Counted from the stretch's first letter, positions 20,910-37,635 are shown. The stretch is 64,000 nucleotides of DNA from an uncultured Acidimicrobiia bacterium (GCA_963786955.1 CAWBAT010000005.1:1280001-1344000); one strand, 5' to 3'. Numbers and translations are program-made. The notes: generated from the letters alone by a model not told the origin.

Positions 20910-21926
20910 ATGCTGCATAAACTACCTTCCGCCACCCACGTCCAGGAAACTGAAATCGTCCCTCGGAAAACTCTGATCGATCCGCGCGTGCGGATTCCGA
21001 TCGCGCTCGCCGCCGTGACAATGTGCGTAGCAGTCGCCGTGCTCGGGCCGGACCCGAACCCGTATCTTCGTTCCGCGGAACGCTTTCACGACTTCCTGCA
21101 CGTGCCAGGATTCGGGCTCGTGGCTGCTTTTCTGCTCTTTGGCTTCCCATATCGCCCCGGCGCGACGCTCGGGAGGCGGACTTGGCATGTGGCAGTGCTC
21201 TTCATGGTCTCCGTCGCCATCGGCACCCTGGTCGAATTACTCCAGGGGATGCTAGGCAGCGATCCGGACCCGTGGGACGTCGTGCACGATGGGGCAGGCG
21301 CAGCGGCGATGTTGCTGGGTGCCGCCTCGTTCTGGCCCGCCGTGCGAACGTCCGGTCGCTGGGGACTACGTCTGGCGGCGCTGATTGCGGCGATCGGCTT
21401 TGCGGGGCCGACGATCTACGCGATTACCGACGAGGCCCGCGCACGGCGCGAATTCCCTGTCCTTGCCAGTTTCAACCGAGCCGAAGAGATCGACCGCTTC
21501 GAGTGGTCGGCTCTCGCGTCCGCGTCGCTCGTGCGCTTGGACAGGGGCGGCGCGGGCCAACGACGAGCGGTTCAGGTGACGTTTTCTCCCGGCGAGTACC
21601 CGGGGTTCACTTTGAAGTATTTCCCGCGAGACTGGCGCGGTTTCCAGCAGTTCGTCCTCTCTTGTACCAACGTTTCGGACGTCCCGTTCGACGTGACCAT
21701 CCGGCTCGATGACATGCAACACAACGAGGATTATTTTGATCGCTTCAACCGGAGCTACGTGCTCGCGCCGGGCCGCAACGAGATAGTCATTCCCTTGGCC
21801 GCCGTCGAGGCTGCACCGCTTGGGCGGAAGTTCGACCTCGGTCGCGTCCGGAGCGTCATGATTTTCGCCTATCGGTTGAAAGCGTCGCGGGAGATCCTGG
21901 TCGAAAGCCTGCGCCTCGATCGCTGA
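20910..21926 (+). CDS. VanZ-like membrane protein fused to a C-terminal carbohydrate-binding-like domain
   Basis: H..F, ELLQ....DPWDV..D.AG VanZ-type motifs; C-terminal PRDWRGFQQF..IRLDD..FNRSYVLAPGRNEIVIPL. Confidence 0.65.
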   Translation: MLHKLPSATHVQETEIVPRKTLIDPRVRIPIALAAVTMCVAVAVLGPDPNPYLRSAERFHDFLHVPGFGLVAAFLLFGFPYRPGATLGRRTWHVAVLFMVSVAIGTLVELLQGMLGSDPDPWDVVHDGAGAAAMLLGAASFWPAVRTSGRWGLRLAALIAAIGFAGPTIYAITDEARARREFPVLASFNRAEEIDRFEWSALASASLVRLDRGGAGQRRAVQVTFSPGEYPGFTLKYFPRDWRGFQQFVLSCTNVSDVPFDVTIRLDDMQHNEDYFDRFNRSYVLAPGRNEIVIPLAAVEAAPLGRKFDLGRVRSVMIFAYRLKASREILVESLRLDR

Positions 21927-22139: not shown

Positions 22140-23069
22140 TTAGTTTATTTTCCTTAAGTTTTGAGGGGGGAGGGGAGCTGAAGCGTCCGTTGAGCATCCA
22201 ATTCGCTGGGTGGAAACAACTAAGTTATCCCAATAACGTGACTGCACCTGTGAGGCGCCGTTATTAATGTAATTTTCAAAAAATACTGCATTGATGCCAT
22301 AGGTGCTATAGCTACCGATAAAATTTAGGTTGGTTTTGCTTGCCTCAAGATGACCGTCAATCCAGAATTCTTGTATGCCATTCGACTGTCCCGCATCGTT
22401 CAACTTCACGTGCGCTTCAACGCAGTTCCACGTTCCGGCATTTGGAGAAGTGAAGATTGGGGTAGTACCACTCGCGCCCCCCAGGTAAACGATATGGGAA
22501 CTATCGTTATAGCCAACGCAATTTACCGTACTTCCTGTTACACAACTTGCAGGATCAATGAGTAAGTAATTATTGTTCCCCCCTGTATCATTTGACCATA
22601 GGTGAGCAATCATCGCCTCCGACCAATTCGAGGCAACAAAAGAAATCGCCCGTGTGAACTTGCTGTTGTGTCCACTTCCCTGACCAACCCAGTTGGCTTG
22701 AGACTTCAAATAGACCCGGTAATACACTTCTCGAAATTTCGTTGTACTATCCACTCCTGCAGGAGGAGGCATACCTGCACCTGGAGGTGTCATCCCTAGC
22801 GCTAATTTAAGTGATCCTGCATCCACTTGTCCGGAAGTCCAACTTGCCCGCATCCCATACGAATTGTTGAAGCCAATTCCAGACACTCTCGCAAAGCCGC
22901 CCTGGCCAGACGAATCAAAGTAGTTGGATATCTTGTCCGTTTCGAAATCATCGCACCATAACCAGGCCGGATGCAGTGTTTTCCAGTTGGACGGGCATTC
23001 GTCCGCAAATGAATTCAACGAAAACGTGGTGTACAGACAGAGCATGGCAAAGGGAATTGCATATTTCAC
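22140..23069 (-). CDS. Secreted beta-jelly-roll, polysaccharide-lyase-like protein with C-terminal PLPPQNLRKIN tail (E1)
   Basis: GTG start after GGAG; signal peptide ..SLNSFA; WCDDFE, EVYYRVYLK, W.CVE.HVKLN, FWIDG, YWDNLVVST. Confidence 0.6.
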   Translation of the reverse strand: MKYAIPFAMLCLYTTFSLNSFADECPSNWKTLHPAWLWCDDFETDKISNYFDSSGQGGFARVSGIGFNNSYGMRASWTSGQVDAGSLKLALGMTPPGAGMPPPAGVDSTTKFREVYYRVYLKSQANWVGQGSGHNSKFTRAISFVASNWSEAMIAHLWSNDTGGNNNYLLIDPASCVTGSTVNCVGYNDSSHIVYLGGASGTTPIFTSPNAGTWNCVEAHVKLNDAGQSNGIQEFWIDGHLEASKTNLNFIGSYSTYGINAVFFENYINNGASQVQSRYWDNLVVSTQRIGCSTDASAPLPPQNLRKIN

Positions 23070-23138
23070 TGATGTCTCCAAACAAATGATTTGATCTACT
23101 AGGGCCCAGTTCTCTGCAGGAAGCGGCAGAGAATTTAC

Positions 23139-23960
23139 TTATTGAATCCGCAGGTTAGTCGGTGGATTGGGAGGATTAACGGGACTTCCTGAAATATTCG
23201 AATTCCATGTATCATCTGTCGAGTAATCATCTGTCCATATATTTCCACCAGACCCGCAGGAACTTCCACCATTGCAATTCTGATGGTAGAAGACCTGGCA
23301 CATCGCATTGCCCCAGGTCGCCCCAGAAAAATCCCCACTCGCAGAATTGTAGAGATTGTGAACGAAGCTACCTACACTTGTTCCATTGACAAACAGTTCT
23401 ACCTTTCCACTGCCACCAGAAGTCGTTTGAAGAGTCAATGCGATAATGTACTCTTGATAATTCTTAGCCGCCGCTCCATTGAAGTTGTAATTCACGCTCC
23501 CGCAGACCCCACCACTACAACCGCTTCCATTGGTCGACTCCACGTTGATATTCGTCGTGTCGAGGTAAAACGTGAGCAGGTCACTGCCTCCGCCCTGCGT
23601 CAGCCGAATGATCTTATTGTGGCCCCTATTCCCAAAGCTAAACGTGCTGCCAAACTTCATCCACCAACGAAAGTAAAACGTCTTCCCACTAAACCACGTC
23701 CCAGCCCCGTAACTCCCGCTCTGCAAGTCATTACACCCACTCTGCCCATCACTTCCATCAGGAATCGTGTACTTCATCGCTCCGCTGCCATCATGCCCCC
23801 CCGTTGCATCAATCACCGCATTCGCAAAATTACACGTCCCTTTACTCGTCGTCGCACTGTCCGCATTCCAAGTAAAGTAGTTAGTTGCCATGGCGTCCTG
23901 ACCGGCCACGAACAGACAGAGAAACCAGATTATAGCCGCCAGACAAGACGACTTTTTCAT
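23139..23960 (-). CDS. Secreted beta-jelly-roll, polysaccharide-lyase-like protein with C-terminal PNPPTNLRIQ tail (E2)
   Basis: ATG 23960, signal peptide MKKSSCLAAIIWFLCLFVAGQDAMA; FYFRWWMKF, NKIIR, GKVELFVNG, IWTDD. Confidence 0.55.
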   Translation of the reverse strand: MKKSSCLAAIIWFLCLFVAGQDAMATNYFTWNADSATTSKGTCNFANAVIDATGGHDGSGAMKYTIPDGSDGQSGCNDLQSGSYGAGTWFSGKTFYFRWWMKFGSTFSFGNRGHNKIIRLTQGGGSDLLTFYLDTTNINVESTNGSGCSGGVCGSVNYNFNGAAAKNYQEYIIALTLQTTSGGSGKVELFVNGTSVGSFVHNLYNSASGDFSGATWGNAMCQVFYHQNCNGGSSCGSGGNIWTDDYSTDDTWNSNISGSPVNPPNPPTNLRIQ

Positions 23961-24885
23961 TCTGGCTAAATAGAGCTTCCTGCTGCTGGGGAGACGCCAA
24001 AATGAAGAGGTGATTGTCATAGCAAAACTTCTCCTTGATTTGAACCGTTTCGTCAAGAGCGAACCTACATTGCCCGATAGGCTGAGTTTTCCGTCCCGCA
24101 ATGATCTTTCAACGTTCATTGGCTCACCGAATTCAAACCTATCCGAACTGCGCGCCAATGCCAGCGTCTTCTTTGCGGACCTCAATTGATTCTCTTGCGT
24201 CCCGGGGACCGTATATTGAAATCTTTCAGGCGCCATTTGGATTTCGTAGAACGACTGTCGAGCCCGGAAACATTACGGCATGAGAATCGCCAAAATCGCT
24301 CAGGCGTCAAGAACCAGATTAGCAGCTTTCTGGCCGCAGTTCACGCTTTCTTGGGGGCAGCTCAGAAATATGAAATTCCTAGCCAAGTTTGAGTATACAA
24401 CTTTCTTTTAAGTTGGATAGTTATGCTAACGAATCATCCAGTCCAAGCGGTGGAAAAGTCAAATCAATACCTGAACTTAGCCGATCTAATCCAGCCTGGA
24501 CCAGGTCTCCGGGATCATTACGACCTCTGAAGGAAGCTTCTTAACGAAACAGACTGAGCGGAGGCTTAAGAGGTTTTTGCCTGCACCCCTCGACTGCGTT
24601 CCGTCATTGAGTTCGAGGAAGGCCATAACTAATTCTGTAATGTCGAGAACAATATTGCAACCGCTGATCAAATCGTGTTGAAAAGTGACGTCCGAGCAGA
24701 GCGCCCCAGCCATACTTTGCTTATTGATGGAACAGGCACATGGACTTACCTTATACTTTGCCGACAGGCGCGCGTCACAGCGATGACAGTGATGGGACGG
24801 GCCATACTGAAGAAAGAGATCCATTCCCACCAGTACTAAAGGTAACAGGGGGTTGTGGCGATATAGATTTGGCCTTCTAAATACC

Positions 24886-25956
24886 ATGCCTATTAGTCCT
24901 CCAAATATCGCCCCAAAGGAAACCACAGTTACTGAAATATCGAATCGTCTTGACTCTGTTACATCCTACAACGCGTATCGCGAAAGACACCGGCACAATA
25001 GCTTCTACCACGATCCCGCCTGGGTAGACGTTATCCGTTCCTGCTTTGGTCACGAGACTCATTGGATTACGGTAAAGCAAAATGACAGGCTGACCGGAGC
25101 TCTTCCGCTGGTTTTCCTAAAGAGCCGGCTATTCGGAAAGGCGCTGGTCTCCATGCCCTATTTCAACTATGGCGGGATTCTGGCAGATGATAGCAGCGTC
25201 ACACAAATTCTCGTAAAGGGAGCTCTTGACCTTAAAGCAAGATTGCGGGCAGATTACATCGAGCTTCGTCAGACAGAAAAACTGGACTCCAACTGGCCCT
25301 TCCGGTCAAACAAGGTAAATATGCTGCTGTCGCTTCCTGGGCACGCCGAAACGCTCATGAAAGGCTTCAAGTCGAAGCTGCGCAATCAAATCCGACGTCC
25401 GGAAAAAGAGGGCTGTACCTTCCACTGGGGACAGGTCGAGCTTCTGCCTGAGTTTTACTCGGTTTTTGCAGAAAATATGAGAGATTTGGGTACACCTGTT
25501 TACCCGCAACGCTTTTTCAATACTATTCTTGAAAAATTCTCCGGTCAGTCCAATATTGCGGTGGTTCGGCTACGACAGAAGCCGGTTGCAGCCGCCTTCC
25601 TCGTTCATTATCAAAACAAGATGGAGATCCCCTGGGCAAGCTCCTTGAGGTCTTTTAATCCGGTCTCTCCAAATATGATGTTGTATTGGGGGGCTCTCGA
25701 GCGTGCTATTGCAATGGAAATGATCCAATTTGATTTCGGACGCTCATCTGTGGGCAGTGGAACATACCAATTCAAAGAACAGTGGGGTGCTTTGCCGCAT
25801 CCGACTTTTTGGATTTATCCAGGGAGCGCGGCCTCTCAACTTCCTGAACACAGCCCCCAAAGTAGCAAGTTTTTCTGGGCTACTCAGATTTGGAGGCGTC
25901 TGCCCCTGTTTCTGACAAACACAGCCGGACCCTGGATCGTTAAGAATATTCCGTAA
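24886..25956 (+). CDS. FemAB-like (GNAT-fold) exosortase-system-associated protein
   Basis: SMPYFNYGG, KLRNQIRR, NMRDLGTPV, SPNMMLYW, FDFGRS, FKEQWG. Confidence 0.88.
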   Translation: MPISPPNIAPKETTVTEISNRLDSVTSYNAYRERHRHNSFYHDPAWVDVIRSCFGHETHWITVKQNDRLTGALPLVFLKSRLFGKALVSMPYFNYGGILADDSSVTQILVKGALDLKARLRADYIELRQTEKLDSNWPFRSNKVNMLLSLPGHAETLMKGFKSKLRNQIRRPEKEGCTFHWGQVELLPEFYSVFAENMRDLGTPVYPQRFFNTILEKFSGQSNIAVVRLRQKPVAAAFLVHYQNKMEIPWASSLRSFNPVSPNMMLYWGALERAIAMEMIQFDFGRSSVGSGTYQFKEQWGALPHPTFWIYPGSAASQLPEHSPQSSKFFWATQIWRRLPLFLTNTAGPWIVKNIP

Positions 25957-25984
25957 CGCCAAGTTCCGCAAATTCAGGGTAATT

Positions 25985-26572
25985 GTTGTAGCTGGGATCG
26001 CTGATCCTGGCCTGGGAGATTGGACATTTTTCGATAAAGTGCAGCGGCAGAATGCCGCTGCTTCCCCTGAGTGCCCTGTAAATTAGGCGATAGAATTCTA
26101 GCCCAGGGCCAGCGAGGAGCAAGAGCTCCTCACGCCGCCCTGGGTCAGCATTTCAACCAATATTATCTCCTCTCCCCCCGAATTGCTAGCCTTTCGGCGA
26201 TTCGGGGGGAGAGGGCGGGAGTGGGGGGTATTCGTTGCCAAATCCTGAATCATGCGTTTCGTTGTTGTTGCAGTGTTTGTCGGAACGAAGCGTGAGTTTT
26301 CGACGTCGACACCTTCTGCCCCCCCCTCACCTTCGCCCTCTCCCCCAACACGGAAAAGGTGTTGGGGGAGAGGGTAGGAATTCGTGGGAACGCTGACCCA
26401 GGGCAGCCGCAGCGGCTACTGCCGCTGGCGGCGCCCTGGGCTAGAATCCAACGCCCCGATGGGGCTCTCGAAGGAGGAAGCGGCCTCATGCCGCTTCATA
26501 AATGTCCAAACTCCAGAGCTGGGATCGCTGATCCTGGCCTGGGGGCCGGCCTCACCGCGGCCAGCTACAGCT
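25985..26572. repeat. Mosaic of palindromic repeats
   Basis: gctgggatcgctgatcctggcctggg at ~25991 and ~26518; ctctcccc/ggggagag hairpins at ~26170-26212 and ~26336-26373; ccctgggctagaat inverted pair. Confidence 0.55.
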
Positions 26573-27037
26573 TGCACAAGTTAATTTCAAGTCTATCGCT
26601 TCATTTCTCGACCCACCCATTTGATTCCGCGAAGTCTCACTTCTTTTAGCATCCAATCCACGATGGCTATTACTGGTCCCAACTTGTAGTAGCTCCGCTT
26701 CAGATCCTTCGGTAACGGCGGCATTGCGTTACCCACGGCCTCCCGCAACGTCCTCCCTAACTACTCTGCTTTACGAGTTCCTTCCCGAATTCCCCCACCC
26801 CCAACTCACATCTACTCGAGTCCTCTTTGGATAATTCCACTGTAGCTCTCCAGCTCAAGGGCCCCGACCTTCTCAAAATTTCTCTCGGTTCAAATTGCAG
26901 CTCTTAGATTTCCGAGTGATGGCAAACATATGGTTCAGAAAGGGACTAATTCATAGATCCGAAATCAACTAGCGCTAAACCTTCAAAAATTTGGCGATGC
27001 AGGATGTGCGGAGCAAGATTCGCTCCCCGGTAACAGA

Positions 27038-27057
27038 ATTGTTCACAGTGGAACAAT
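27038..27057. promoter_or_regulatory. Palindrome (TGT-N10-ACA), candidate enhancer-binding-protein site
   Basis: attgttc-acagtg-gaacaat, about 50 bp upstream of the sigma-54 motif. Confidence 0.4.
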
Positions 27058-27106
27058 CTCAGATGATTAAACATTAGACGTTGCAAGATTAGAGGTCAAA
27101 AACGAA

Positions 27107-27122
27107 TGGCATGCAAGTTGCT
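27107..27122 (+). promoter_or_regulatory. Sigma-54 (-24/-12) promoter
   Basis: TGGCATG-CAAG-TTGCT, near-perfect match to TGGCACG-N4-TTGCW with exact spacing. Confidence 0.7.
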
Positions 27123-27173
27123 GTACTTCAAGATGGAAAGAGGGCTTTTCTTGATTGGAGGAATCATAACATC

Positions 27174-27680
27174 ATGAAGTATAAAGCAGATAAACTTATT
27201 ACGATCACTATACTTCTTATTGTTGGAATGGTTCTTTTGCCTTCCTGTTTAATGGCAGCAGATGTTCAACTTGCCTGGAATGCCAATACAGAGTCCAACT
27301 TGGGTGGATACAGGATCTACTACGGGACGAGTTCGGGTAACCTGAGCAGTTCAGTCAACGCCGGGAACGTGACAGCCTATACCCTGACCGGACTTTCGCT
27401 TGGAACAACTTACTATTTTGCGGCGACTGCCTATAACACATCTGGGAGCGAAAGTGGTTTTTCAAACATCGTTTCTGCGACGGCTGGTTCTTCTTCTTCG
27501 CCTAGCTGTGATGTGAATGGGGATGGTTCTGTGAACGCACTCGATCTACAAGGATTGAGCAATGGCATATTGGCTGGATCCACGTCCAGTGTTTACGACA
27601 TTAATCGGGATACCGCAGTGAACGCTTTGGACTTGCAACGGCTTGCAAATATTATTCTCGGCACCGCTGTTTGCCAGTAG
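27174..27680 (+). CDS. Secreted Fn3 (A strand absent) + C-terminal dockerin-like protein (P1)
   Basis: GGAGG RBS; signal peptide then ADVQLAW..GYRIYYG..TYYFAATAY; duplicated Ca-binding loop-helix CDVNGDGSVNALDLQ / YDINRDTAVNALDLQ. Confidence 0.8.
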   Translation: MKYKADKLITITILLIVGMVLLPSCLMAADVQLAWNANTESNLGGYRIYYGTSSGNLSSSVNAGNVTAYTLTGLSLGTTYYFAATAYNTSGSESGFSNIVSATAGSSSSPSCDVNGDGSVNALDLQGLSNGILAGSTSSVYDINRDTAVNALDLQRLANIILGTAVCQ

Positions 27681-27726
27681 CTGCGAGAATGGGAATCATC
27701 AGACTAACTAAGGTGAAGGATTGGTC

Positions 27727-29406
27727 ATGCATATAGACAAGCGCTTTGCATTTCTTTTGATGGCTTTGATGATAATCTTGGGGGCATTCGTCTTATCGAC
27801 AGAGACCGCATTTGCCCAGGCCCCGGTTGTGAGCGTTGGAACGGCCAGCGGAAACGCTGGAACAGCTGTGGACTTGACCGTGTCTTTCACGGCTGGCGCC
27901 ACTGGAGTAAGCACCCTCCAATTTGACCTGACGTTCCCCTCGTCTCTAGCCTATGTTTCGACGACAACAGGTGCGGCGGCAACCGCGGCTGGGAAATCGG
28001 CAAGTGGCAGCGCTATCTCCGGAGGTGCTCGAGTGTTGGTCTTCGCACTTAACACAACCTCGATTGGTTCGGGTGCAGTCGCCATAGTTCGACTCAACAT
28101 CGCCAGTGTCACCAGCCCGGCATCCATACCTGTGGGCATCACGGGAATTGTCGCATCAGATTCTGTCAGCAACGCGGTTACTGCTAACGGTTCTGGCGGC
28201 TCGGTCACAGTCACAACCCCTGGCGACACGACCGCACCGGTGATTTCGGCAGTGACGGCCTCAGGCATGACGGCGACGGGAGCAACCATTAGCTGGACGA
28301 CCAACGAAGCGTCTGATACGCAGGTGGAGTATGGGAAGACGACGGCTTATGGAAGTCTGACGACGTTAAATGGCAGCATGGTGACGTCGCACTCACAGGG
28401 TTTGAGTGGACTCACGGCCAGCACGACTTATAACTACCGGGTGCGGTCGAAGGATGCGGCTGGAAACCAGGCGGTATCGGGGAACGCAACGTTTGCGACG
28501 ACAGCGGCGGCGGACACAACGGCACCGGTGATTTCGGCAGTGACGGCCTCAGGCATGACGGCGACGGGAGCAACCATTAGCTGGACGACCAACGAAGCGT
28601 CTGATACGCAGGTGGAGTATGGGAAGACGACGGCTTATGGAAGTCTGACGACGTTAAATGGCAGCATGGTGACGTCGCACTCACAGGGTTTGAGTGGACT
28701 CACGGCCAGCACGACTTATAACTACCGGGTGCGGTCGAAGGATGCGGCAGGAAACCAGGCGGTATCGGGGAACGCAACGTTTGCGACGACAGCGGCGGCG
28801 GACACGACGGCACCGGTGATTTCGGCAGTGACGTCGTCAGGGATGTCGGCGACGGGAGCGACTATTAGCTGGACGACCAATGAAGCGTCGGATACACAGG
28901 TGGAGTATGGGACGACGACGGCTTATGGGAGTCTGACGACGTTAAATGGCAGCATGGTGACGTCGCACTCGCAGGGTTTGAGTGGACTCACGGCCAGCAC
29001 GACTTATAACTACCGGGTGCGGTCGAAGGATGCGGCTGGAAACCAGGCGGTATCGGGGAACGCAACGTTTGCGACGACAACGGCGCCGGACACGACGGCA
29101 CCGGTGATTTCGGCAGTGACGTCGTCAGGGATGACGACGACGGGAGCGACCATTAGCTGGACGACCAATGAAGCGTCGGATACACAGGTGGAGTATGGAA
29201 CGACGACGGCTTATGGGAGCACCACAACCCTCAACACTTCCCAGCTCACCAGTCATCTCCAATCGGTGAGTGGTTTGTCTGCGAGGACGCTTTACCACTA
29301 TCGAGTCAAATCCAAAGATGCGGCAGGTAATCTGGCTACTTCAGCTGACTTGACTTTTACCACTTCCTCAGTCTTACCCCCTCCAACCAATGTTACGGTC
29401 AAGTAG
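27727..29406 (+). CDS. Secreted cohesin-like + four Fn3-like repeats + C-terminal LPPPTNVTVK tail (P2)
   Basis: Signal peptide ..AFA; VSVGTASGNAGTAVDLTVSF..GVSTLQFDLTF..G.VAIVRLNI cohesin pattern; 4 x 96-aa DTTAPVIS..ATISWTTNE repeats. Confidence 0.78.
   Translation: MHIDKRFAFLLMALMIILGAFVLSTETAFAQAPVVSVGTASGNAGTAVDLTVSFTAGATGVSTLQFDLTFPSSLAYVSTTTGAAATAAGKSASGSAISGGARVLVFALNTTSIGSGAVAIVRLNIASVTSPASIPVGITGIVASDSVSNAVTANGSGGSVTVTTPGDTTAPVISAVTASGMTATGATISWTTNEASDTQVEYGKTTAYGSLTTLNGSMVTSHSQGLSGLTASTTYNYRVRSKDAAGNQAVSGNATFATTAAADTTAPVISAVTASGMTATGATISWTTNEASDTQVEYGKTTAYGSLTTLNGSMVTSHSQGLSGLTASTTYNYRVRSKDAAGNQAVSGNATFATTAAADTTAPVISAVTSSGMSATGATISWTTNEASDTQVEYGTTTAYGSLTTLNGSMVTSHSQGLSGLTASTTYNYRVRSKDAAGNQAVSGNATFATTTAPDTTAPVISAVTSSGMTTTGATISWTTNEASDTQVEYGTTTAYGSTTTLNTSQLTSHLQSVSGLSARTLYHYRVKSKDAAGNLATSADLTFTTSSVLPPPTNVTVK
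28225..29370 (+). repeat. Intragenic tandem repeat, 288-bp unit x4
   Basis: Units start at 28225, 28513, 28801, 29089; first three nearly identical in DNA, fourth diverges after ~29220. Confidence 0.92.
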
Positions 29407-29771
29407 CATCGACAGAGCTTTGGTGTGTTAATTCCGCCTCCTATTATTCAGTCCTCCCGTTTCGCGAGACTGTTGCTGCGATCGTTTCTCGAAAGATCGT
29501 AGTATTCGAGTTTCCCGTCATCAACTCTTAAAACAACATATTCAGTCACTTAGGTTGTTTGATTCGTCATATATCATTCAAACTTTCTTCGTCTTCCTGT
29601 CGTGTATGCCTGTGTGCACGCCTCACTGTTTAAGCTCTATTTGTATTTATTTCCGTAGCAAAGATGGGCCGATTGATTCAGGCAATACCTCTTGTATTCA
29701 GGTGATGATCTCCGTTAGGATTCAAATAGGAAACTATTACTCATCTTTTATCGGAAAGGGAGCAGATATCG

Positions 29772-30701
29772 ATGCGGATACTTGTGACAGGTGGTGCTGG
29801 ATTCCTGGGGTCACATCTTTGTGAGGTTTTACTAGAGGAGAAGAATGAAGTGATTTGCCTCGACAACTTCTTCACTGGGTCGAAACGGAACGTTTATCAT
29901 TTGATGGATTTCAGGTACTTTGAGATCTTGCGGCACGATGTCATCAATCCGATCGATATCGAAGTGGATCAGATCTACAACCTGGCTTGTCCAGCCTCTC
30001 CAGTATTCTATCAATTCAATCCCGTTCGCACGATCCAGGCCAATGTTTTAGGTGTTACGAACATGTTAGAGCTTGCGAAAAGGACAAAAGCTAGAATTCT
30101 GCAGGCTTCGACTTCTGAGGTCTACGGCGATCCTGCCGTTCACCCCCAACGAGAAGACTATTGGGGGAATGTGAATCCGGTTGGAATCCGCAGTTGCTAT
30201 GATGAGGGCAAGCGAGTCGCAGAAGCCTTAATGATGGATTATTACCGCCAATACGCAATAGACATTAAGATTGTGAGAATCTTCAACACTTACGGACCGA
30301 GGATGGCAGTCAATGATGGAAGAGTTGTCAGCAATTTCATTGTTCAAGCACTCAAGGGAGGAGACATCACGGTATATGGTGATGGCCAGCATACACGCTC
30401 CTTCTGTTTTGTTTCAGATCTCGTGGCGGGGTTGAATGCGATGATGACCAGTGCGGATTTCACTGGCCCGGTTAACCTGGGGAACCCGGCTGAATTCACC
30501 ATTCTTAGCCTGGCAAGCAAGGTCATCGAACTAGTGGGCTCCCGTTCGAAGATTGTGTTCAACCCCTTACCATCAGATGACCCTTCTCGTCGTCGTCCAG
30601 ACATCAGTTTAGCTAAAGAGAAACTAAACTGGTCTCCGATTGTCCCGATCGATGAGGGTTTGGTGAAAACGGTCGAATACTTCAGGAAAGCATTGGCTTA
30701 A
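29772..30701 (+). CDS. UDP-glucuronic acid decarboxylase (UDP-xylose synthase family SDR)
   Basis: [43 protein letters not shown]. Confidence 0.92.
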
Positions 30702-30708
30702 TTACTTA

Positions 30709-30806
30709 GTACTGCTTTTCATAAATACGGTGACGTTAACGCCGGGTCGGTGACCCCACGCGGCGCCTATCCTAAGATACGTCACCGTAATTACGAATAG
30801 CAGTAC
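30709..30806. mobile_element. MITE-like element (copy 2, internally shorter)
   Basis: TIRs gtactgcttttcataaatacggtgacgt / acgtcaccgtaattacgaatagcagtac; TTA (within CTTAG) on both flanks. Confidence 0.7.
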
Positions 30807-30816
30807 TTAGTACGCA

Positions 30817-31194
30817 TTGACTGCATACAATTCCTCAGAAAATGAAAGTGGCTTCTCCAATGAAATTTCGACGACGATAGCCGCTTCGACTGATACGACA
30901 CCAACGGTGATTTGGGCAGTGACGGCTTCAGTCGTGACGGCAATGGGAGCGACCATCTGCTGGACGACCAACGAGTCGTCTGATACGCAGGTGGGGTATG
31001 GGACGACAACGGCCTTTGGAAACAACCCTGCCATCGACTCACCAAAAGTAACAAGTCATTCTCAAGCCTGGGCTGGTCTCGCTTCAAGTACGCTCTATCA
31101 TTATCCCGCCAAGTCACGCGACGCTGCTCGCTATTTGTCATTGTCCGGTGATTTTGGTTTCACCACAGTGGCTACATTTGATCTCCATCCCTGA
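30817..31194 (+). pseudogene. 5'-truncated, decayed Fn3 repeat gene
   Basis: Begins mid-domain (TAYNSSENESGFSNEIS) then a degenerate P2-type repeat (DTTPTVIWAVTAS..ATICWTTNESSDTQV); no signal peptide. Confidence 0.7.
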
Positions 31195-31653
31195 GCATAT
31201 AAGTCTTCAAAGTTTGGATTAGCTCGAGTCTTGGGATCATAGCCAATTCAGCAATCTATGACCCAAAAATAGAACCGCAGCTAATGCATTAGTTATAGGG
31301 GAAGTTCCTGGTAAGGCGTGCTCGCCGAGTGCGCCATGGACGCTCCGGTGATCAGTCCTTCGCAAATCTTTGGCCCTGTGGGCTATCGTGCAGGGCAAAT
31401 TGCAAAGCAATCATCAGTTCTATGCCAGAAACGGCAGCCTTAACTATTTTATGTGATAAGCCGATGAGAATTCTAGCTATGTGCGGCACAGGGATTGTTG
31501 ACCCTCACTGAGGCGAGCGCCTTTTTCGGAAGGTCATGAAGTTGTATGCCTGGACCACTATTTTCGTGATTCGAAAAAGAACATACACAATCTCTTGAAT
31601 TACAAAAATTTTGAGTTATGAACGATTGAGTATTACAGGGGTTCGCAAAGCAA

Positions 31654-32529
31654 ATGAACTCGACCTCCCAATTTCTCAAAACACGTCCATTTGTTGAAGA
31701 AGCTTCCCCGTACCTCAGAGCCCTTGTGGTCGGGTCTTTGCTAACTTATCTTTATTTCCCCGTCTTAAATGGGATCGTTGCTGAGTGGTGGAATAACGCC
31801 AACTACTCCTATGGCTTCCTGATCCCGATCGTATCTTTTGTCATACTTTGGAATCGAAGAAAAGAATTTCAGGGAATCCAGGTCTCTCCTGAATTCCGAG
31901 GGGCATGGATATTCTCTTTTGGTCTTTTCTTGTATCTTACTGGAATCGCGGGCAAGGAAGAATTCATTCAACGGTTTTCGTTCCCGCTCACACTTTTAGG
32001 ATTGGTTTACTTTCTTTGCGGTAAATCGGCGGCCCTATCTGCGCTTTTTCCCATCGGTTATTCCTATTTCATGATCCCTCTTCCTTCTATCGTTTTCAGT
32101 AACATTGCTTTACGCCTGCAACTGCTTGACGCCAAAGTGGTTGCTGTGGTTGCTTCCCTTCTAGGTGTGCCAGTCTTCCGAGAGGACTTCATCCTCCATC
32201 TCCCTGAGATTTCACTCAAAGTGGCCGAGGCGTGCGGCGGTGCTTTTTCCGTTATAGCATTCCTCGCCCTTGGGGTTTTTTACACTCATGAATTGAAATT
32301 GAAGCGGCCCGCCAAGATCTTCCTCTGGCTGCTGTTGATACCGCTGGCTGTTTTTTCCAACATCATTAGGATCTTGGTGATTGTGCTCGTGTCGTACTAC
32401 TCTGGTAGTTGGGTTCTACGTTCGAGTATTCATCTCCTCTCGGGTGTTTTCAGCTTCTTGGTTGATTTCGGAGCTTTGGTATTCATAAGTAAACTCTTGG
32501 AAAAATCACCGAAACAAGATCATTCGTAA
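31654..32529 (+). CDS. Exosortase (EpsH family transpeptidase)
   Basis: W...YSYGFLIP, FMIPLP, VAEACGG (Cys), NIIRI (Arg), IHLLSG (His); multi-TM. Confidence 0.88.
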   Translation: MNSTSQFLKTRPFVEEASPYLRALVVGSLLTYLYFPVLNGIVAEWWNNANYSYGFLIPIVSFVILWNRRKEFQGIQVSPEFRGAWIFSFGLFLYLTGIAGKEEFIQRFSFPLTLLGLVYFLCGKSAALSALFPIGYSYFMIPLPSIVFSNIALRLQLLDAKVVAVVASLLGVPVFREDFILHLPEISLKVAEACGGAFSVIAFLALGVFYTHELKLKRPAKIFLWLLLIPLAVFSNIIRILVIVLVSYYSGSWVLRSSIHLLSGVFSFLVDFGALVFISKLLEKSPKQDHS

Positions 32530-32532
32530 GAA

Positions 32533-33183
32533 ATGAGTCCAAAAGCACATTTGCAATGGTGGATGGCGGTAATTATGTTGGTTGCCGCCAATCTTTATGT
32601 TCACACGGGAGACGATAACACGTCGAATACCCGTCCCCCAGATGTTCAGTTATTCCCCGCAAGACTTGGCGCTTGGAACTGTGTTTCCTCCGAGGGGACG
32701 AAATCGGAACACGAAGACCAAAATGTTGATAAGTTCTGGAAAGCAAAATGCCAGAAGGGAGCCAGCCAACCCCTAGACGTATTCATCGGCTATTCTTTTC
32801 ACGCTGGTAAGAAAGGGAGGCTCCCGCCCCCGTTAGTGTACTTCGGGCAGCAAGAATGGGATTTCCCTACAAACCAGTCTGTCTCTATTGACGATGAGAA
32901 CCAAAAAGGAAGAAAACTCAACCTAATGCAATGCCTGCTCAGGAACCCCCAAGGATCTAAAGTCGCATTGAGCTATTGGTACCAGTTATCGGGGAATTCC
33001 TATGCGAGCGACTACGGTTATCGATGGGCCTTGATTCTCCGTCGATTGATTCGTCAACCTGTTCGTGGCCAGATCGTACGGATAACTTTGCCTGTAGAGG
33101 GATTGGCCCAGCAGGAAGCCTTTGAGCTTGAAAAGGAGTTGGGATTGGAACTTTGGACTTTGGTTCAAGCCGAACTCCGTTGA
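32533..33183 (+). CDS. EpsI family exosortase-associated protein
   Basis: N-terminal anchor, FP.RLG.W, DVFIGY, LSYWYQ, G.IVRIT; directly follows exosortase. Confidence 0.75.
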   Translation: MSPKAHLQWWMAVIMLVAANLYVHTGDDNTSNTRPPDVQLFPARLGAWNCVSSEGTKSEHEDQNVDKFWKAKCQKGASQPLDVFIGYSFHAGKKGRLPPPLVYFGQQEWDFPTNQSVSIDDENQKGRKLNLMQCLLRNPQGSKVALSYWYQLSGNSYASDYGYRWALILRRLIRQPVRGQIVRITLPVEGLAQQEAFELEKELGLELWTLVQAELR

Positions 33184-33541
33184 GGACCTGTATGGCAACA
33201 AATTCATGGAACATTTGGAGGCAGAATGGAGCTGACCTCGATTTCTTGCCGGGAATTGTTTAGGTCTGTTTTTCCCCGCATTGCTTTTGCTAGACCAAAG
33301 ATCCTCTTCTCCGAGAAAGTCCATAATCGTTGCCCGGTTGATCTCATTTGCCGAAAATTCAGCGCAGGATCCGACCAAATACAGTTCAAGGGAATTAAAT
33401 TACACTCTTGTTACTAGGTTATCCACCTGCAATCTTTCCCGCCGCAGAGATTTTCACATTAAAAATAAGAATAAGACCTAACGTATTCTTAATAATTAAA
33501 TTAGATCTGAAGTCGTGCCCCGATATGAAAGTGCAGGCAAT

Positions 33542-33557
33542 TGGTCAGACAGTTGCA
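33542..33557 (+). promoter_or_regulatory. Candidate sigma-54 promoter
   Basis: TGGTCAG-ACAG-TTGCA, exact GG-N10-GC spacing, same distance to ATG as in P1. Confidence 0.45.
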
Positions 33558-33608
33558 TTCCCAGTTCCTGCTGGCATCAGCCACAAATCTAAATTAGGGC
33601 AAGTCTTC

Positions 33609-34793
33609 ATGCTAAGTAGAAATACCAGCCCAATCATTAGAATCGCGGCCCTTTTGGTTCTCATATTTGTATTCAAAGGGGCCGGAAATGGTTTTGCAGG
33701 CTCCTTGTCAATTTCCTGGACTCCGATCCAAGACAGTCTCTTAGCAGGATACAAGATCAAATTTGGCACGACCTCGGGAATTTATTCGCAATCGGTGAAT
33801 GTCGGAAACGTCACCAGCTATGTCGTGCCGAATCTCACCGATGGAACGACGTATTATCTCATCGTCGTTGGATACGACACCAGCCAAGTTGAGGGCCAGG
33901 CCTCAACCGAAGTATCAGGAGCTGTCCTCGCATCCACTGCGGTTGCCGCATCTTCCATCACAGCCAATGGGGCGGTCATTATCTGGACAACAAATAAACC
34001 AGGTGACAGCCAGACCGATTATGGAACCACGACAACCTATGACGCGAGCACATCTCTGGATCCCACTCTAGTGACAAGCCATTCCCAATCGCTGGCGAAC
34101 CTGAATGCAGGTACGACTTATAATTACCGGATCCGCTCCAAGGATGCCGGCGGTTCCGTGACCGTTTCTTCAAACTTCTCGTTCACGACGCAACAAGGGC
34201 CGGACACCACGCCTCCCGGAGATGCGACCAACTTCACGGCGGTGCCTGGCAACACCATAATTAACCTTAATTGGACAAATCCCACAGACCCCGATTATAA
34301 AGGGGTCATGATTCGCTACCGAACAGACGGCGTGTACCCGACCAGTAATGCTGATGGAATGCTTGCGATGGATCGCGTCGAAGTTGCCGGATCAAATGAT
34401 TATTTCGTCCACTCGGGATTGTCGAACGGGACCACTTATAGTTATTCAGCATTCACTTATGACACCACAGGTAATTACTCGCACACCGCGCATATTCAGG
34501 CCACGCCAGCCAATCTGTCAATTACATCAATTTCCCCGATTAAAGGGCTGACAGGAACCACAGTTGTAATCTCGGGCACTGGTTTCGGAACTGCTCAGGG
34601 GAGTAGTAAAGTGACTTTCAATGGACTGACTGCCACCGCGAGTGCTTGGAGCGACACTTCAATCACGGTTACTGTTCCCCAAAATGCCAAGAGTGGCAAT
34701 GTCGTTGTAACGGTTAACGGGGTGCAGACCAATGGGGTCTATTTCAAAGTTGGCAACGGCGTTGGAAAACCCCCGAAAGTGAGAGTCTTTTAA
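33609..34793 (+). CDS. Secreted Fn3 (A strand absent) + 2 Fn3 + IPT/TIG + C-terminal GKPPKVRVF tail (P3)
   Basis: Signal peptide ..GNGFA then GSLSISW; IPT motif ITSISP..G.TGTTVVISGTGFG..WSDTSITVTVP; ATG 33609 chosen. Confidence 0.8.
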   Translation: MLSRNTSPIIRIAALLVLIFVFKGAGNGFAGSLSISWTPIQDSLLAGYKIKFGTTSGIYSQSVNVGNVTSYVVPNLTDGTTYYLIVVGYDTSQVEGQASTEVSGAVLASTAVAASSITANGAVIIWTTNKPGDSQTDYGTTTTYDASTSLDPTLVTSHSQSLANLNAGTTYNYRIRSKDAGGSVTVSSNFSFTTQQGPDTTPPGDATNFTAVPGNTIINLNWTNPTDPDYKGVMIRYRTDGVYPTSNADGMLAMDRVEVAGSNDYFVHSGLSNGTTYSYSAFTYDTTGNYSHTAHIQATPANLSITSISPIKGLTGTTVVISGTGFGTAQGSSKVTFNGLTATASAWSDTSITVTVPQNAKSGNVVVTVNGVQTNGVYFKVGNGVGKPPKVRVF

Positions 34794-34833
34794 GCTAGAA
34801 AGCTAGCACAAACTTCCCGCCCCCAAGCCCACC

Positions 34834-34874
34834 AAACGGCAGCCAGCAGAAACCACTGGTTGCCGTTTTTTTTT
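34834..34874 (+). terminator. Rho-independent terminator
   Basis: aaacggcagccag-loop-ctggttgccgttt followed by T run. Confidence 0.8.
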
Positions 34875-34890
34875 CCTATTCAATCTGTTT

Positions 34891-35020
34891 GGTAGGGCGC
34901 GCTCGCTGAGCGCGCCGAAGCTTGAGGGCGGTCTCAGCGAGACGCCCTACCGACCCCCTTAAGTCCCCCTTAACCAAGGGGGACAATTCCCACGGTGGTC
35001 TAAGCGAGACCGCCTTATCA
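34891..35020. repeat. GTAG-family REP mosaic (BIME-like)
   Basis: gtagggcgcgctcgctgagcgcgccg, inverted ggcggtctcagcgagacgccctac, ccccttaagtcccccttaaccaagggggac. Confidence 0.8.
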
Positions 35021-35329
35021 ATCCGACCTAATAAATACTAATTATGTAGTTTTATTACTAAAGCCAAATTTACGACCAAAGATTCCATCGGTACGCAATT
35101 AGTTGTATTCCAAATCCTCCAAAGTGATTACTAGCCACTACCCAATGGGTATTAGAACATGGTTGACCGCGCAATCACAAAATTGTCATGAAACATCTTT
35201 ACTTAATATATATTATGGCAATTTTACCATCACGAATTTGATGTTTAATTGATTATAAGTGTTTGTATATCAATAGCTTTGATAAAATATGAGAAATAAT
35301 TTCATATAGGAAAACTTTACCCTCATTAA

Positions 35330-35345
35330 TGGAGTGATGGATGCT
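35330..35345 (+). promoter_or_regulatory. Weak candidate sigma-54 promoter after AT-rich region
   Basis: TGGAGTG-ATGG-ATGCT, GG-N10-GC spacing; AT-rich 35030-35330. Confidence 0.3.
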
Positions 35346-35385
35346 CTTCATGGGCTGGGATATTCCAAAACGAGGGTTAGGGATC

Positions 35386-37635
35386 ATGCGTAATTACCTA
35401 AAATCCATCATACTTTTTTCAGGCATTTTACTAAGTTTGTCGTCGGCTGCATTTGGACAAACCGGCAACGTCACGGTTTCTTGGGATCCTATAAAAGACC
35501 CAGACTTGGGTGGATACACGGTTCTCTGGGGGACAGCTTCAAAGAGTTATACAGGCTCCCAAAACACGGGGATGACGACTACTCAATCTAACGTATCTCT
35601 CCCTGGCGGGAAGACCTATTATTTTGCTGTCCGGGGGTTCGATCAAGCTGGTGTGCCGGGGGAATTGTCTGATGAGGTTTCTGCGATTGTTAAAGGCAGC
35701 GACACCACACCTCCGGTTATTTCCGGCGTTTCAGCCAGCAACATCACCTCTTCAGGCGCCACCATTTCATTCAGCACCGACGAAGAGGCTTATGTCCAAG
35801 TTGCGTACGGAACAAGTTCCGCACTGGGGGTGTATACAGGCCTCACAAATGTTTCCTCGAAATCGCACCAAGTTGTTTTGAGCAGCCTATCCGGTTCTAC
35901 AACGTATTTCTTTCAAGCAGTCGCCAAAGATCTTTCTGCAAACCAAGCTCTTTCCCAAGTCTTATCGTTCAAAACGCTAGCGGGTCCTGACAAACCTCCG
36001 GACCCTGACAATCCTCCGGACCCGAATGCCGCGATCAAATTTATTCAGATCACTCTGACAAACGTAAGCAGTAATTCAGTATCGATCAATTGGACAACTG
36101 ACAAGTGGACCACGGGGTTTGTTCAGTACGGCTTGGATACCAATTTGGGGATGAGCGTCTCCGATCCAAACTCTCTTTCGAATCACCTCACGGAACTGTC
36201 TTCCCTGACTCCATCCACTCTTTACCGGTATCGAATTACGGCGATGGACACAGAAGGTCACCAGGCCGTTTCAGGGGTTCTGATGTTTAAGACTGCGGAC
36301 CGCGTCAGCCAGCCAGCGCGGCCTTCATCACAAGCAATCTTTATTCCGTCGATTGTTGAAAACAGCCGATTCAGAACGAATCTTGGCATCAACAATGAAA
36401 CCGACACGATAGCCAATGTCAGTCTGACGCTCGTGGACAAGGAGGGGATTGTCCTTGGCGGAACCACCTTGACCGTGGAACCCATGGGGCTGAGACAAGT
36501 CAACAGTGTTGCTCGGGTCCTGTATCCAAACGGCTTTGGGAATGACATAGAAGGCAACCTCTATCTTGAAAGCGACCAGAATATTAAGGCTTGGGCGTCT
36601 CAGATCAACAATGCGACCAATGACCCCAGTCTCTTACTGAGTAAGCAGTCAGGCTCAACGAAACTGCTCATTCCTTCTTCAGCCAACATTGGAAAATTTA
36701 CGTCCTCGCTCGTATTGATGAATATTGGATTATCCACCGCTCAGGTAACCATGAAATCTTACGGGACCTCGGGGCAAGTTCTTGGGCAGACCCGGGAACC
36801 ACTCTCCATTCCGCCCAATGGAATCCTTAGTTTTGACAATGTGCTGGATACTCTTGGCGTAAAGGATAACTACGGCCCGATTGAAATTATCTCCATCAAC
36901 GATGTGCCCATCATTGTTAGTTCGCGCGTCTCCAATGCAAACGGAGCAGGTGGGTTTTTTGAGGGCTTGGATTATGTGAATGCTTCCACTCTTCAATACA
37001 TTCCTTACGTCCTTGATACCAGTGCGACTCGCACTAACCTGGGGATTAATAACGTAACCGAATCTGCCGCAACGGTAAAGATTCGATTGTTTGATCAGCA
37101 TGGAAGTCTCGTGGCCTCGAAGCAAGTTTCGGTAGCACCGAGAGGTCTGACGCAGATCAATAACATTGTTCGCTTTATGATCAACGCGACTGACGTCACG
37201 AACCGGGAAGGGTATTTACAGCTGGATTCTGATCAGCAGATATTTGGCTGGGCGTCTCAGATTGACAACACCAGCAACGATCCCGGGTTTGCCGTGAGCA
37301 AGGGGACCGGTTCGACCCATCTCCTGGTGGACTCCACGGCCAATGTGGGGAGCTTCAAGTCCAGTCTGGTAATTGTCAATGTCGGGGATTCGGATGCGCT
37401 TGTAGACATCGTGTCTCGCAATATCGAAGGAGATATACAAGGCGAAGCCCGCGGGGTACTGATATCGAAGGGTGGCTTCTATAGTACGACCAATATCCTT
37501 GAAACCTTAGGGGTTCACTCCAGCTATGGGCCGGTCGAAATCCTTTCGACAAATGGCAAGCCTCTTTTAGTGACCTCTCGGGTCTATAGCGATTCTGGTA
37601 CGAGCGGGTTTTTTGAAGGACAGTCGATAGATTAA
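35386..37635 (+). CDS. Secreted Fn3 (A strand absent) + 2 Fn3 + two copies of a ~215-aa beta-rich C-terminal module (P4)
   Basis: Signal peptide ..AAFG then QTGNVTVSW; repeated RTNLGINN..WASQI.N..NDP..AN.G.F.SSLV..YGP.EI.S..GFFEG. Confidence 0.78.
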   Translation: MRNYLKSIILFSGILLSLSSAAFGQTGNVTVSWDPIKDPDLGGYTVLWGTASKSYTGSQNTGMTTTQSNVSLPGGKTYYFAVRGFDQAGVPGELSDEVSAIVKGSDTTPPVISGVSASNITSSGATISFSTDEEAYVQVAYGTSSALGVYTGLTNVSSKSHQVVLSSLSGSTTYFFQAVAKDLSANQALSQVLSFKTLAGPDKPPDPDNPPDPNAAIKFIQITLTNVSSNSVSINWTTDKWTTGFVQYGLDTNLGMSVSDPNSLSNHLTELSSLTPSTLYRYRITAMDTEGHQAVSGVLMFKTADRVSQPARPSSQAIFIPSIVENSRFRTNLGINNETDTIANVSLTLVDKEGIVLGGTTLTVEPMGLRQVNSVARVLYPNGFGNDIEGNLYLESDQNIKAWASQINNATNDPSLLLSKQSGSTKLLIPSSANIGKFTSSLVLMNIGLSTAQVTMKSYGTSGQVLGQTREPLSIPPNGILSFDNVLDTLGVKDNYGPIEIISINDVPIIVSSRVSNANGAGGFFEGLDYVNASTLQYIPYVLDTSATRTNLGINNVTESAATVKIRLFDQHGSLVASKQVSVAPRGLTQINNIVRFMINATDVTNREGYLQLDSDQQIFGWASQIDNTSNDPGFAVSKGTGSTHLLVDSTANVGSFKSSLVIVNVGDSDALVDIVSRNIEGDIQGEARGVLISKGGFYSTTNILETLGVHSSYGPVEILSTNGKPLLVTSRVYSDSGTSGFFEGQSID

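Follow-up and report, generated by a model that had tools for sequence, protein, structure and literature searches.

The 64,000-nucleotide stretch analysed here, which we refer to as the window, comes from an uncultured Acidimicrobiia bacterium (GCA_963786955.1, CAWBAT010000005.1:1280001-1344000) whose genome, G000, comprises 5.65 Mb in nine contigs; in our contig numbering the window is C5:1280001-1344000. An exosortase-type exopolysaccharide (EPS) locus spans window positions 1-39 kb, and among its genes are six for secreted proteins that we call E1, E2 and P1 to P4. Three of these (P1, P3 and P4) begin with a fibronectin type III (Fn3) domain that has no first strand, strand A, which we term a socket, and four (E1, E2, P2 and P3) end in a free proline-rich tail; this report concerns the candidate docking of such tails into such sockets. 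Counted from their probable true starts, the products are 312 (E1), 273 (E2), 168 (P1), about 560 (P2), 394 (P3) and 749 (P4) residues long, and all six have a hydrophobic, signal-like N-terminus with a small-x-small site, the signal peptides and cleavage sites having been assigned by eye. The setting is an XrtA/PEP-CTERM EPS locus in which the exosortase and marker genes exceed their NCBIfam cut-offs (Table 1): the XrtA-associated FemAB-family protein scores 356.6 bits against TIGR03019 (cut-off 260.35) and the XrtA-system polysaccharide deacetylase 391.5 bits against TIGR03006 (cut-off 276.2). A flippase, several XrtA-type glycosyltransferases and an amidotransferase are encoded in the same locus.

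Table 1 Sockets, tails and associated features of the EPS locus, in window coordinates. HMM, hidden Markov model; AF2, AlphaFold2; pLDDT, predicted local distance difference test.
Feature	Position	Strand	Basis
E1, secreted polysaccharide-lyase-14-like jelly-roll protein, donor only	22140..23081	-	Pfam PL14 25.4 bits, below cut-off 27
E1 tail PLPPQNLRKIN, free C-terminus	22143..22175	-	same kind of tail in 16 of 77 classifiable E1-relative loci, each with stop
E2, secreted, donor only, polysaccharide-lyase-like by language-model features	23139..23960	-	no Pfam family
E2 tail PNPPTNLRIQ	23142..23171	-	kept in 5 of 5 full-length homologues, 43-88% identity
P1 gene	27174-27680	+	signal ...SCLMA, then ADVQLAW
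P1 signal peptide	27174..27257	+	by eye; A28 invariant before strand B in 16-member alignment
P1 socket Fn3, begins at strand B	27258..27503	+	Pfam fn3 profile 15-82 of 84; socket HMM 125.9 bits
P1 type I dockerin	27507..27677	+	Pfam Dockerin_1 46.9 bits, cut-off 22.9; PDB dockerins match
P2 cohesin domain	27826..28212	+	Pfam Cohesin 34.4 bits, cut-off 24.1
P2 four Fn3/Pur_ac_phosph_N repeats, each with own A strand	28225..29373	+	tandem DNA array
P2 tail LPPPTNVTVK	29374..29403	+	syntenic P2-like gene of locus L003 ends LPAPTNVIVR, stop
Socket-type Fn3 gene remnant: F-G strands and second Fn3-like domain, no start	30811..31194	+	socket HMM positions 53-78, 25.7 bits
Exosortase (XrtA-like) and EpsI genes	31654..33183	+	TIGR02602 131.2 bits, cut-off 105.55; EpsI_fam 41.7 bits, cut-off 42.8
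P3 socket, N-terminal Fn3 from strand B	33699..33932	+	Pfam fn3 from profile position 15; AF2 six strands, pLDDT 91-96
P3 tail GKPPKVRVF	34764..34790	+	tail of same kind in 31 of 31 orthologues; disordered in AF2 monomer
P4 socket, N-terminal Fn3 from strand B, acceptor only	35458..35700	+	socket HMM 56.1 bits from HMM position 2

A previous reading of this DNA, made from the sequence only, had proposed that P1, P3 and P4 open at Fn3 strand B directly after the signal peptide, and the open reading frames (ORFs), the Pfam matches and an HMM built from the P1 family (the socket HMM) bear this out. The P3 gene (33609-34793) passes from the signal ...GNGFA into GSLSISW, and the P4 gene (35386-37635) from ...AAFG into QTGNVTVSW; the first domain of P4 is not called by Pfam. 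P1 and P3 exceed the PF00041 gathering cut-off of 25 with 35.8 and 50.9 bits, and lipoproteins from three metagenome loci (L083, L087 and L095; L numbers denote fetched loci and four-digit P numbers fetched proteins) score 27.6-29.6 bits. A full seven-strand Fn3 domain includes strand A, at profile positions of about 1-10; the matches start at position 15 in P1 and P3, at 16 in the L079 protein and at 11 in the L083 and L087 lipoproteins, and the other 14 fn3 matches in the genome begin at positions 1-9. Solved Fn3 domains retrieved by a PDB search likewise align to the P1-family profile only from about residue 12-23 onward.

The A-less Fn3 is a large and widespread subfamily that is almost always N-terminal. 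Nearly all of the 78 P1 homologues consist of a signal segment followed by x-V-x-L-x-W, and among the ORFs of fetched loci and the fetched proteins, 233 of 250 socket-HMM matches of at least 40 bits lie directly after a hydrophobic segment; a few copies of the family are internal, two of which (L060 and L070) have their own A strand. Many socket proteins without a tail carry anchoring C-termini instead, either a choice-of-anchor U domain with a transmembrane end (92.8 and 95.5 bits, cut-off 32) or a CFI-box-CTERM (102.6 bits, cut-off 40), so that the N-terminal socket would be at the far tip of an anchored protein. Anchoring-type ends were seen on tail-less socket proteins of L009, L020, L032 and L050 and on P0120, P0147, P0148, P0156 and P0182, and a C-terminus of the form G-G-C-G-M-I...P-G...transmembrane segment...basic end, with no NCBIfam match, is common among such proteins. 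In the present genome, the socket-type domains are those of P1, P3 and P4, a P4-like paralogue, a weak 97-residue ORF at C5:731928 and one gene remnant (Table 1), which ends ...TVATFDLHP before its stop and resembles a decayed paralogue of P3 or P4. Beyond its Fn3 domains, P4 has a DUF5719-like domain, of unknown function, in two copies (36.8 bits, cut-off 26.2); its 611-residue paralogue, outside the window at C5:1564484-1566319, also combines an N-terminal A-less Fn3 with two DUF5719-like repeats. This paralogue is 250 kb away from the locus, and a pattern search of its surroundings turned up no tail gene.

The free proline-rich tails previously read on E1, E2, P2 and P3 are confirmed in sequence, and nothing Fn3-like follows their stops. 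Read-through or frameshifting past the tails was rejected, as the 300 nt after each stop hold no Fn3 continuation in any of three frames, and an anchor of the PEP-CTERM type was likewise rejected, the tails being 8-11 residues long with the stop directly after and having no hydrophobic helix or basic cluster. A fifth tail protein, the lectin-like T0, is encoded 2.7 kb upstream of the window (G000:C5:1276546-1277289) and ends ...SPPENLRILP before its stop. The pattern PP.N[LV].[IVK] occurs in nine places among the 14105 stop-to-stop ORFs of at least 100 residues in the whole genome; four of these sit 1-2 residues from the stop, and all four fall within the 33 kb of C5:1.276-1.309 Mb. We call E1 and E2 lyase-like on three weak leads to polysaccharide lyase family 14 (PL14), namely the E1 match at 25.4 bits against a cut-off of 27, an E2-like protein of L083 at 26.7 bits against the same cut-off, and the Atlas cluster closest to E2, which bears the name 'Polysaccharide lyase 14 domain-containing' (score 0.97, a lead only); a sequence search for solved structures of the E1 family and E2 returned nothing useful.

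Two alignments indicate the nature of the tails. T0 shares 70% identity with residues 610-825 of a 1093-residue paralogue (C5:1237171-1240452), and the alignment extends into the tail, so that ...TAPSPPENL pairs with ...PPATPTNL at the start of the first of three complete Fn3 domains. In the E1-family representative P0214, the tail site similarly holds PDTPENLDTTAV...IDLAW (...PDTPENLDTTAVTESKIDLAW), part of a full Fn3. From these alignments the tail corresponds to an Fn3 A strand ending where the A-B loop would begin, and on grounds of homology the tails are detached Fn3 A strands. They resemble fn3 profile positions of about 2-9, and the sockets cover positions 11 or 15 to 82. A comparable segment directly before strand B had been pointed out in a complete internal domain (PPGDATNFTAV..INLNW); it is present, in P3. 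The T0 paralogue, which is secreted and lies outside the window, consists of an Fn3 domain, a Kelch-like region, the T0-like lectin domain and the three complete Fn3 domains.

The tails are also conserved. The E2 family has only seven proteins in a collection of 5.8 billion, and its five full-length homologues all end in PPxNLx[VI][QR] or NPPTLLPVQ directly before the stop. All 31 P3 orthologues (P0086-P0116) both start with ...G[ST][LI]xxxW after the signal and end with K/L-x-x-P-x-x-x-R/Q-φ-x(1-3) when judged by eye (strict patterns recover 27 of the 31), and in the family tail P358 is invariant and R362 is present in at least 90%. The tail runs to the stop in each of the eight E1 relatives L081-L088. 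More widely, the E1 domain had 1369 matches in a family search, and among the best 150 representatives, 146 have a covered domain end: 59 end at the domain (...RIGC), 26 run on briefly, about 20 of them into what by eye resembles an A strand, and 61 continue into other modules, which by eye include dockerin-like repeats, anchor-like ends and Fn3 domains. The tail thus appears, by eye, to occupy the position where E1 relatives carry attachment modules. A second type of tail, ...PPxxVxN[LVA]RRxD[KT]x before the stop, was observed on two unrelated families, the Big_5 proteins P0158-P0181, where an N-terminal socket always accompanies it, and the E1-family proteins P0298, P0333 and P0338.

One may postulate that no docking takes place, the A-less Fn3 being a stable six-stranded subfamily and the tails stubs of lost downstream Fn3 domains that persist as harmless linker ends. 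T0 does resemble a truncated form of the paralogue with LamG and three Fn3 domains, the locus shows decay at 30811-31194, the sockets are modelled confidently without strand A (see below), and tail-less sockets are the majority. Chance truncation, however, would not be expected to end 1-3 residues past one and the same φ-x-φ motif in five or more unrelated families; this motif persists at 43% identity and in all 31 P3 orthologues while the preceding linkers vary, and tail genes cluster both with sockets and with one another (19 pattern matches among 178 ORFs of tail-bearing loci, against 3 among 1076 ORFs of control loci). We consider this explanation decidedly improbable.

Sockets and tails are joined in one protein across unrelated architectures, including the P3 family with its TIG domains, the PKD proteins of L038 and L040, and the Big_5 proteins P0158-P0181, which end ...PPxxVxNLRRxDK; further two-ended proteins are those of L042, L046 and L066 and P0125, P0167, P0183 and P0185. 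The smallest, that of L079, consists of a single A-less Fn3 joined by a 12-residue linker to a tail, and AF2 turns the tail residues RNVR of its monomer into a strand (block pLDDT 75 and 65) whose partner strand is not readable. Both features would fit a tail that folds into its own socket, giving a circularly closed or circularly permuted Fn3 and no polymer. P3, in contrast, has four domains between its ends and a free tail in its AF2 model, for which reason docking in cis was rejected in that protein; the linkers before most tails are moreover as short as ordinary Fn3-Fn3 links (for example TFTTSSVLPPP in P2), and donor-only and acceptor-only proteins would be left unexplained. Self-closure consequently has very little probability as an account of the two-ended proteins.

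Because the ends of the E1-family representatives are not certain to be true stops, metagenome loci around E1 relatives were examined with their stops checked. Of 80 such loci, 3 are cut off; the other 77 could be classified, 16 with the tail and 61 without it. A socket-type Fn3 gene (at least 30 bits) is found in 6 of the 16 loci with a tail (134 kb) and in none of the 61 without (519 kb), a difference whose significance (Fisher p = 3.4e-5) the test overstates because four of the six positive loci (L082, L083, L084 and L087) are close kin. In these four, the gene order is a lipoprotein with an A-less Fn3, an E2-like or PL14-like protein with a tail and an E1-like protein with a tail, and the gene sets lie in an EPS locus syntenic with the present window; the lipoprotein has an L-x-A-C lipobox, a Ser/Gly-rich linker and a single A-less Fn3 (Pfam match from position 11). 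At L085:1-710, all that is left of the lipoprotein socket gene ahead of the two tail genes is the part for its final ~25 residues (...VAVTAFDTSNHENAFSNEVSKAIP, stop). Adjacent socket and tail genes occur elsewhere in L009 (Manganitrophaceae), L077 (Acidobacteria) and L025 (Desulfobacterales), and in L003, L004 and L010 a P1-like protein accompanies a cohesin protein that ends, before the stop, in LPAPTNVIVR, LSPPGKVKVEINP and SSPANVVAETVK, respectively.

Searches centred on the sockets gave a fainter signal. A loose tail pattern matched 11 of 4695 ORFs around sockets, 3-4 of them credible, and the strict pattern matched 2 of the 68 ORFs with a socket and 3 of the 1597 others, both weak enrichments; such counts miss many variant tails and catch chance ends, and we do not use them as a basis. 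The fetched proteins P0008-P0205 comprise 24 with socket and tail, 113 with a socket only, 8 with a tail only and 53 with neither, which reveals no clear association, in a set that is biased by retrieval, holds many fragments and was left unused. The co-occurrence of tails and sockets that the earlier reading had proposed to check is present in the loci of E1 relatives (6 of 16 against 0 of 61), and most sockets elsewhere have no tail nearby.

One complex was predicted, pairing the P1 socket (residues 29-110, 16-row alignment) with the last Fn3 domain of P2 and its tail. The interface score (ipSAE) was 0.36 (runs of 0.37, 0.36 and 0.36), against 0.01 for the best of three controls, with at least 92% contact agreement between runs and a partner pLDDT of at least 79, which weakly favours an interaction. 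Of 80 solved complexes, 58 reach the mark used for complex scores, as do 2 of 110 mismatched pairs; at values of 0.60 or less it is reached by just 7 of the 80 solved complexes and by both passing mismatches. These counts hold roughly for P1-P2, for which a custom alignment was used. AF2 applied to mature P3 with a 31-row alignment gave a mean pLDDT of 90 and a predicted template modelling score (pTM) of 0.54.

Taken together, these results suggest that the tails may dock in trans into A-less Fn3 domains, a plausible split-Fn3 strand-complementation system to which we assign a probability of roughly 0.5, because the anatomy, homology, conservation and neighbourhood evidence agree. Several observations weigh against it. 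No socket was seen in 10 of the 16 E1-relative loci with a tail, though many of those contigs are short; the lipoprotein Fn3 of L095 begins at Pfam position 5 and may be complete; L085 retains just a remnant of its socket gene; and in the window no socket gene or remnant was found upstream of E2 where L082-L087 have one. In the 80 socket-centred loci, the strict tail pattern matched 7 of 1665 ORFs (about five credible) against 3 of 1076 in control loci, and 113 of the 137 fetched socket proteins have no tail, A-less Fn3 domains being far commoner than tails. Six of the nine Acidobacteriota P2-like proteins end in ...SAIP[PAG]Q plus 2-5 residues, some too short or too unlike a strand. On the structural side, the first domain of P3 is a confident six-stranded AF2 model (pLDDT 91-96) with no sign of needing a strand, and the P3 tail is disordered (pLDDT 35); the internal socket-family copies P0079, P0083 and P0056 also have no A strand, so the six-stranded form may be self-sufficient. 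The P1-P2 score lies in a band where, for a guess that was not already likely, most passes are false, and as it came without a contact map it does not place the tail at the A-strand position.

The structural expectation of the sequence-only reading, that a tail would insert into a socket as strand A, is weakly supported by the complex score (0.36 against 0.01), and AF2 leaves the tail of P3 disordered. Folding of the sockets as six-stranded domains, or with an A strand from their own linker, had been named as counting against docking: AF2 models the P3 socket in the first way.

An alternative that we regard as unlikely takes the tail for an address or anchoring tag at the C-terminus that is read by a partner other than the A-less Fn3 (an exosortase-locus processing or ligating enzyme, a polysaccharide or another domain), with the A-less Fn3 domains serving as independent matrix-binding modules that happen to lie in the same locus. 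Such a tag would be in keeping with the placement of the tail, by eye, where relatives carry dockerin-like repeats and anchor-like ends, with the FemAB-family XrtA-associated protein and exosortase of the locus, with the majority of sockets that have no tail nearby and with the weak prediction of tail-socket binding. The tail, however, has neither a transmembrane segment nor a basic cluster, and we know of no exosortase- or sortase-type signal without these; by homology it is an A strand, exactly what the sockets miss. The link of 6 of 16 against 0 of 61 is, in addition, specific to A-less Fn3 genes, and proteins with both socket and tail recur.

Under trans docking, a socket would be an Fn3 domain that begins at strand B once the signal peptide is removed and so exposes the open edge of its A-B-E sheet; in relatives, sockets would be borne by small lipoproteins or by C-terminally anchored proteins. 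The plug would be a C-terminal tail of 8-11 residues, made of a Pro-rich linker, x-N/G-φ-x-φ and a free carboxyl end, which outside the cell would align antiparallel to strand B in the socket of a second molecule, completing the fold. As the sockets probably fold alone, this would amount to strand addition to an open sheet edge and not to obligatory chaperone-dependent complementation as in pilins. We infer the physical insertion, the pairings and the stoichiometry. E1 and E2 (polysaccharide-lyase-like) and the lectin-like T0 would be tethered to scaffold or surface proteins, P1 and P2 could be joined through two different joints, and the two-ended P3 could chain head to tail. The likeliest role would be the tethering of EPS-trimming, lyase-like E1 and E2 and of T0, with the joining of scaffold parts second.

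The earlier proposal that the tails are donor strands completing sockets in trans is thus supported by the A-strand homology of the tails, their conservation, the missing profile positions of the sockets (1-10 or 1-14), the co-occurrence and the recurrence of two-ended proteins; for actual insertion the support is weak, and the many sockets with no tail nearby and the confident six-stranded model speak against an obligatory mechanism. The fibre or matrix scaffold put forward with it becomes one option, and tethering of lyase-like enzymes to lipoprotein or anchored sockets fits the gene neighbourhoods better. More tentatively, and with less than even confidence, we suggest a widespread, chaperone-free 'split Fn3' code of environmental bacteria in which A-strand tags would address enzymes and scaffold parts to sockets on lipoproteins, stalks and dockerin adaptors, two-ended proteins would polymerise into nicked Fn3 chains, and these together with cohesin-dockerin joints would form the protein component of EPS matrices of the exosortase type. 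Split-Fn3 parts were seen on named records of Acidobacteriota, Thermodesulfobacteriota, Nitrospirota and Scalinduaceae.

The sequence-only reading overlooked the cohesin-dockerin joint between P1 and P2. These two genes (27174-29406) constitute a non-cellulosomal dockerin-cohesin pair in an exosortase EPS locus, the binding of which is predicted from their domain matches, and the pair is syntenic in the Acidobacteriota loci L001-L008 and in L010. As P1 is a socket followed by a dockerin and P2 a cohesin followed by four Fn3 domains and a tail, the two could join at both ends, giving either a closed pair or an alternating chain. At window 28225-29216 the repeat DNA of P2 forms an array with a period of 288 nt (3.4 copies, 96% matches), in which the number of units could be variable or could have been compressed during assembly. 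Large cohesin- and socket-bearing proteins of L001, L002 and L005-L008 share the end ...F[AG][LV]FG[TS]x[ND]L[SKT]x[LF]SAIP[PAG]Q plus 2-5 residues before the stop, and the SAIP[PAG]Q end may be a different or degenerate end motif.

Strand complementation is familiar from pili and from protein engineering. Chaperone-usher subunits miss their C-terminal strand, type V pilins need proteolytic removal of an N-terminal strand, and a chaperone plus usher or a protease is required; type V pili have a C-terminal donor strand and lipoprotein precursors. SpyTag/SpyCatcher is a man-made system in which a short peptide, equivalent to one strand of an Ig-like domain, inserts into the rest of that domain and is locked by an isopeptide bond, whereas nothing here points to a covalent bond. 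In chaperone-usher systems the G strand is missing and the donor is N-terminal; here strand A is missing and the candidate donor is C-terminal, and no genes for such a chaperone, usher or protease turned up among the 27 window ORFs scanned, in a scan with no search aimed at PapD-like or usher families. The C-terminal candidate donor, and the lipoprotein sockets of the relatives L082-L087, recall type V pili, although the scan gave no FimA/Mfa-type family match and the scanned sockets no removable N-terminal strand. Pilins also depend on chaperones, whereas the present socket seems from AF2 able to fold alone. What is shared with the donor-strand pili, exemplified by chaperone-usher CupE (PMC10104325) and type V Mfa4 (PMC4789730), is an Ig-like fold that stays incomplete until a neighbour supplies a short strand in trans.

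Closer in setting are the TasA biofilm fibres of Bacillus subtilis, which form by donor-strand exchange (PMC9674648; TapA, PMC10151520): an extracellular matrix is reported to be assembled outside the cell, without an usher, by giving a strand to the next subunit. TasA is, however, a homopolymer of a jelly-roll-like fold, whereas here the fold is Fn3, the first strand (A) is missing, the candidate donor is a C-terminal tail and many donors are enzymes. Archaeal cannulae are also reported to polymerise outside the cell by strand complementation without a chaperone (10.1101/2024.12.30.630787), as a homotypic fibre of a different fold with no cargo enzymes, whereas cargo is proposed here. Cohesin-dockerin scaffolds resemble the candidate system in their modular attachment of secreted enzymes and adaptors, and P1 and P2 are themselves such a pair; cohesin and dockerin are, however, two complete domains, whereas here one domain would be split into a body of 70-80 residues and a strand of 8-11. 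A survey that includes non-cellulosomal cohesin-dockerin pairs and Fn3 adhesins in sulfate reducers contains no split-Fn3 idea in its main text (PMC10553843), and a full-text search of a limited literature turned up neither an account of strand complementation by Fn3 domains nor one of a cargo-tethering version. A split-Fn3 docking system is apparently undescribed.

Regarding the wider surroundings, the named homologues closest to P1 and P3 belong to metagenome-assembled genomes of Terriglobia/Acidobacteriota, and E1 had no match at E <= 1e-20 among 300 other genomes sampled from the same phylum. Between a glycosyltransferase gene and E1 lies an ORF of 338 residues (window 20910-21926) with no family match; this G+C-rich segment has a G+C fraction of 0.567, against about 0.50, and several long overlapping ORFs on both strands.

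The split-Fn3 idea is directly testable with peptides and single domains. If correct, it would represent a natural peptide-tag and binder system derived by splitting one of the commonest protein folds, and would be a source of small, orthogonal, non-covalent docking pairs for protein engineering. It would also extend the range of known assemblies based on strand complementation (pili, TasA and archaeal fibres) by one that is heterotypic and carries cargo, and would supply a function for the very large family of Fn3 proteins that start, oddly, at strand B. For the organisms themselves, such docking would explain how polysaccharide-trimming enzymes are retained at the cell or matrix in many uncultured bacteria of soils and sediments.

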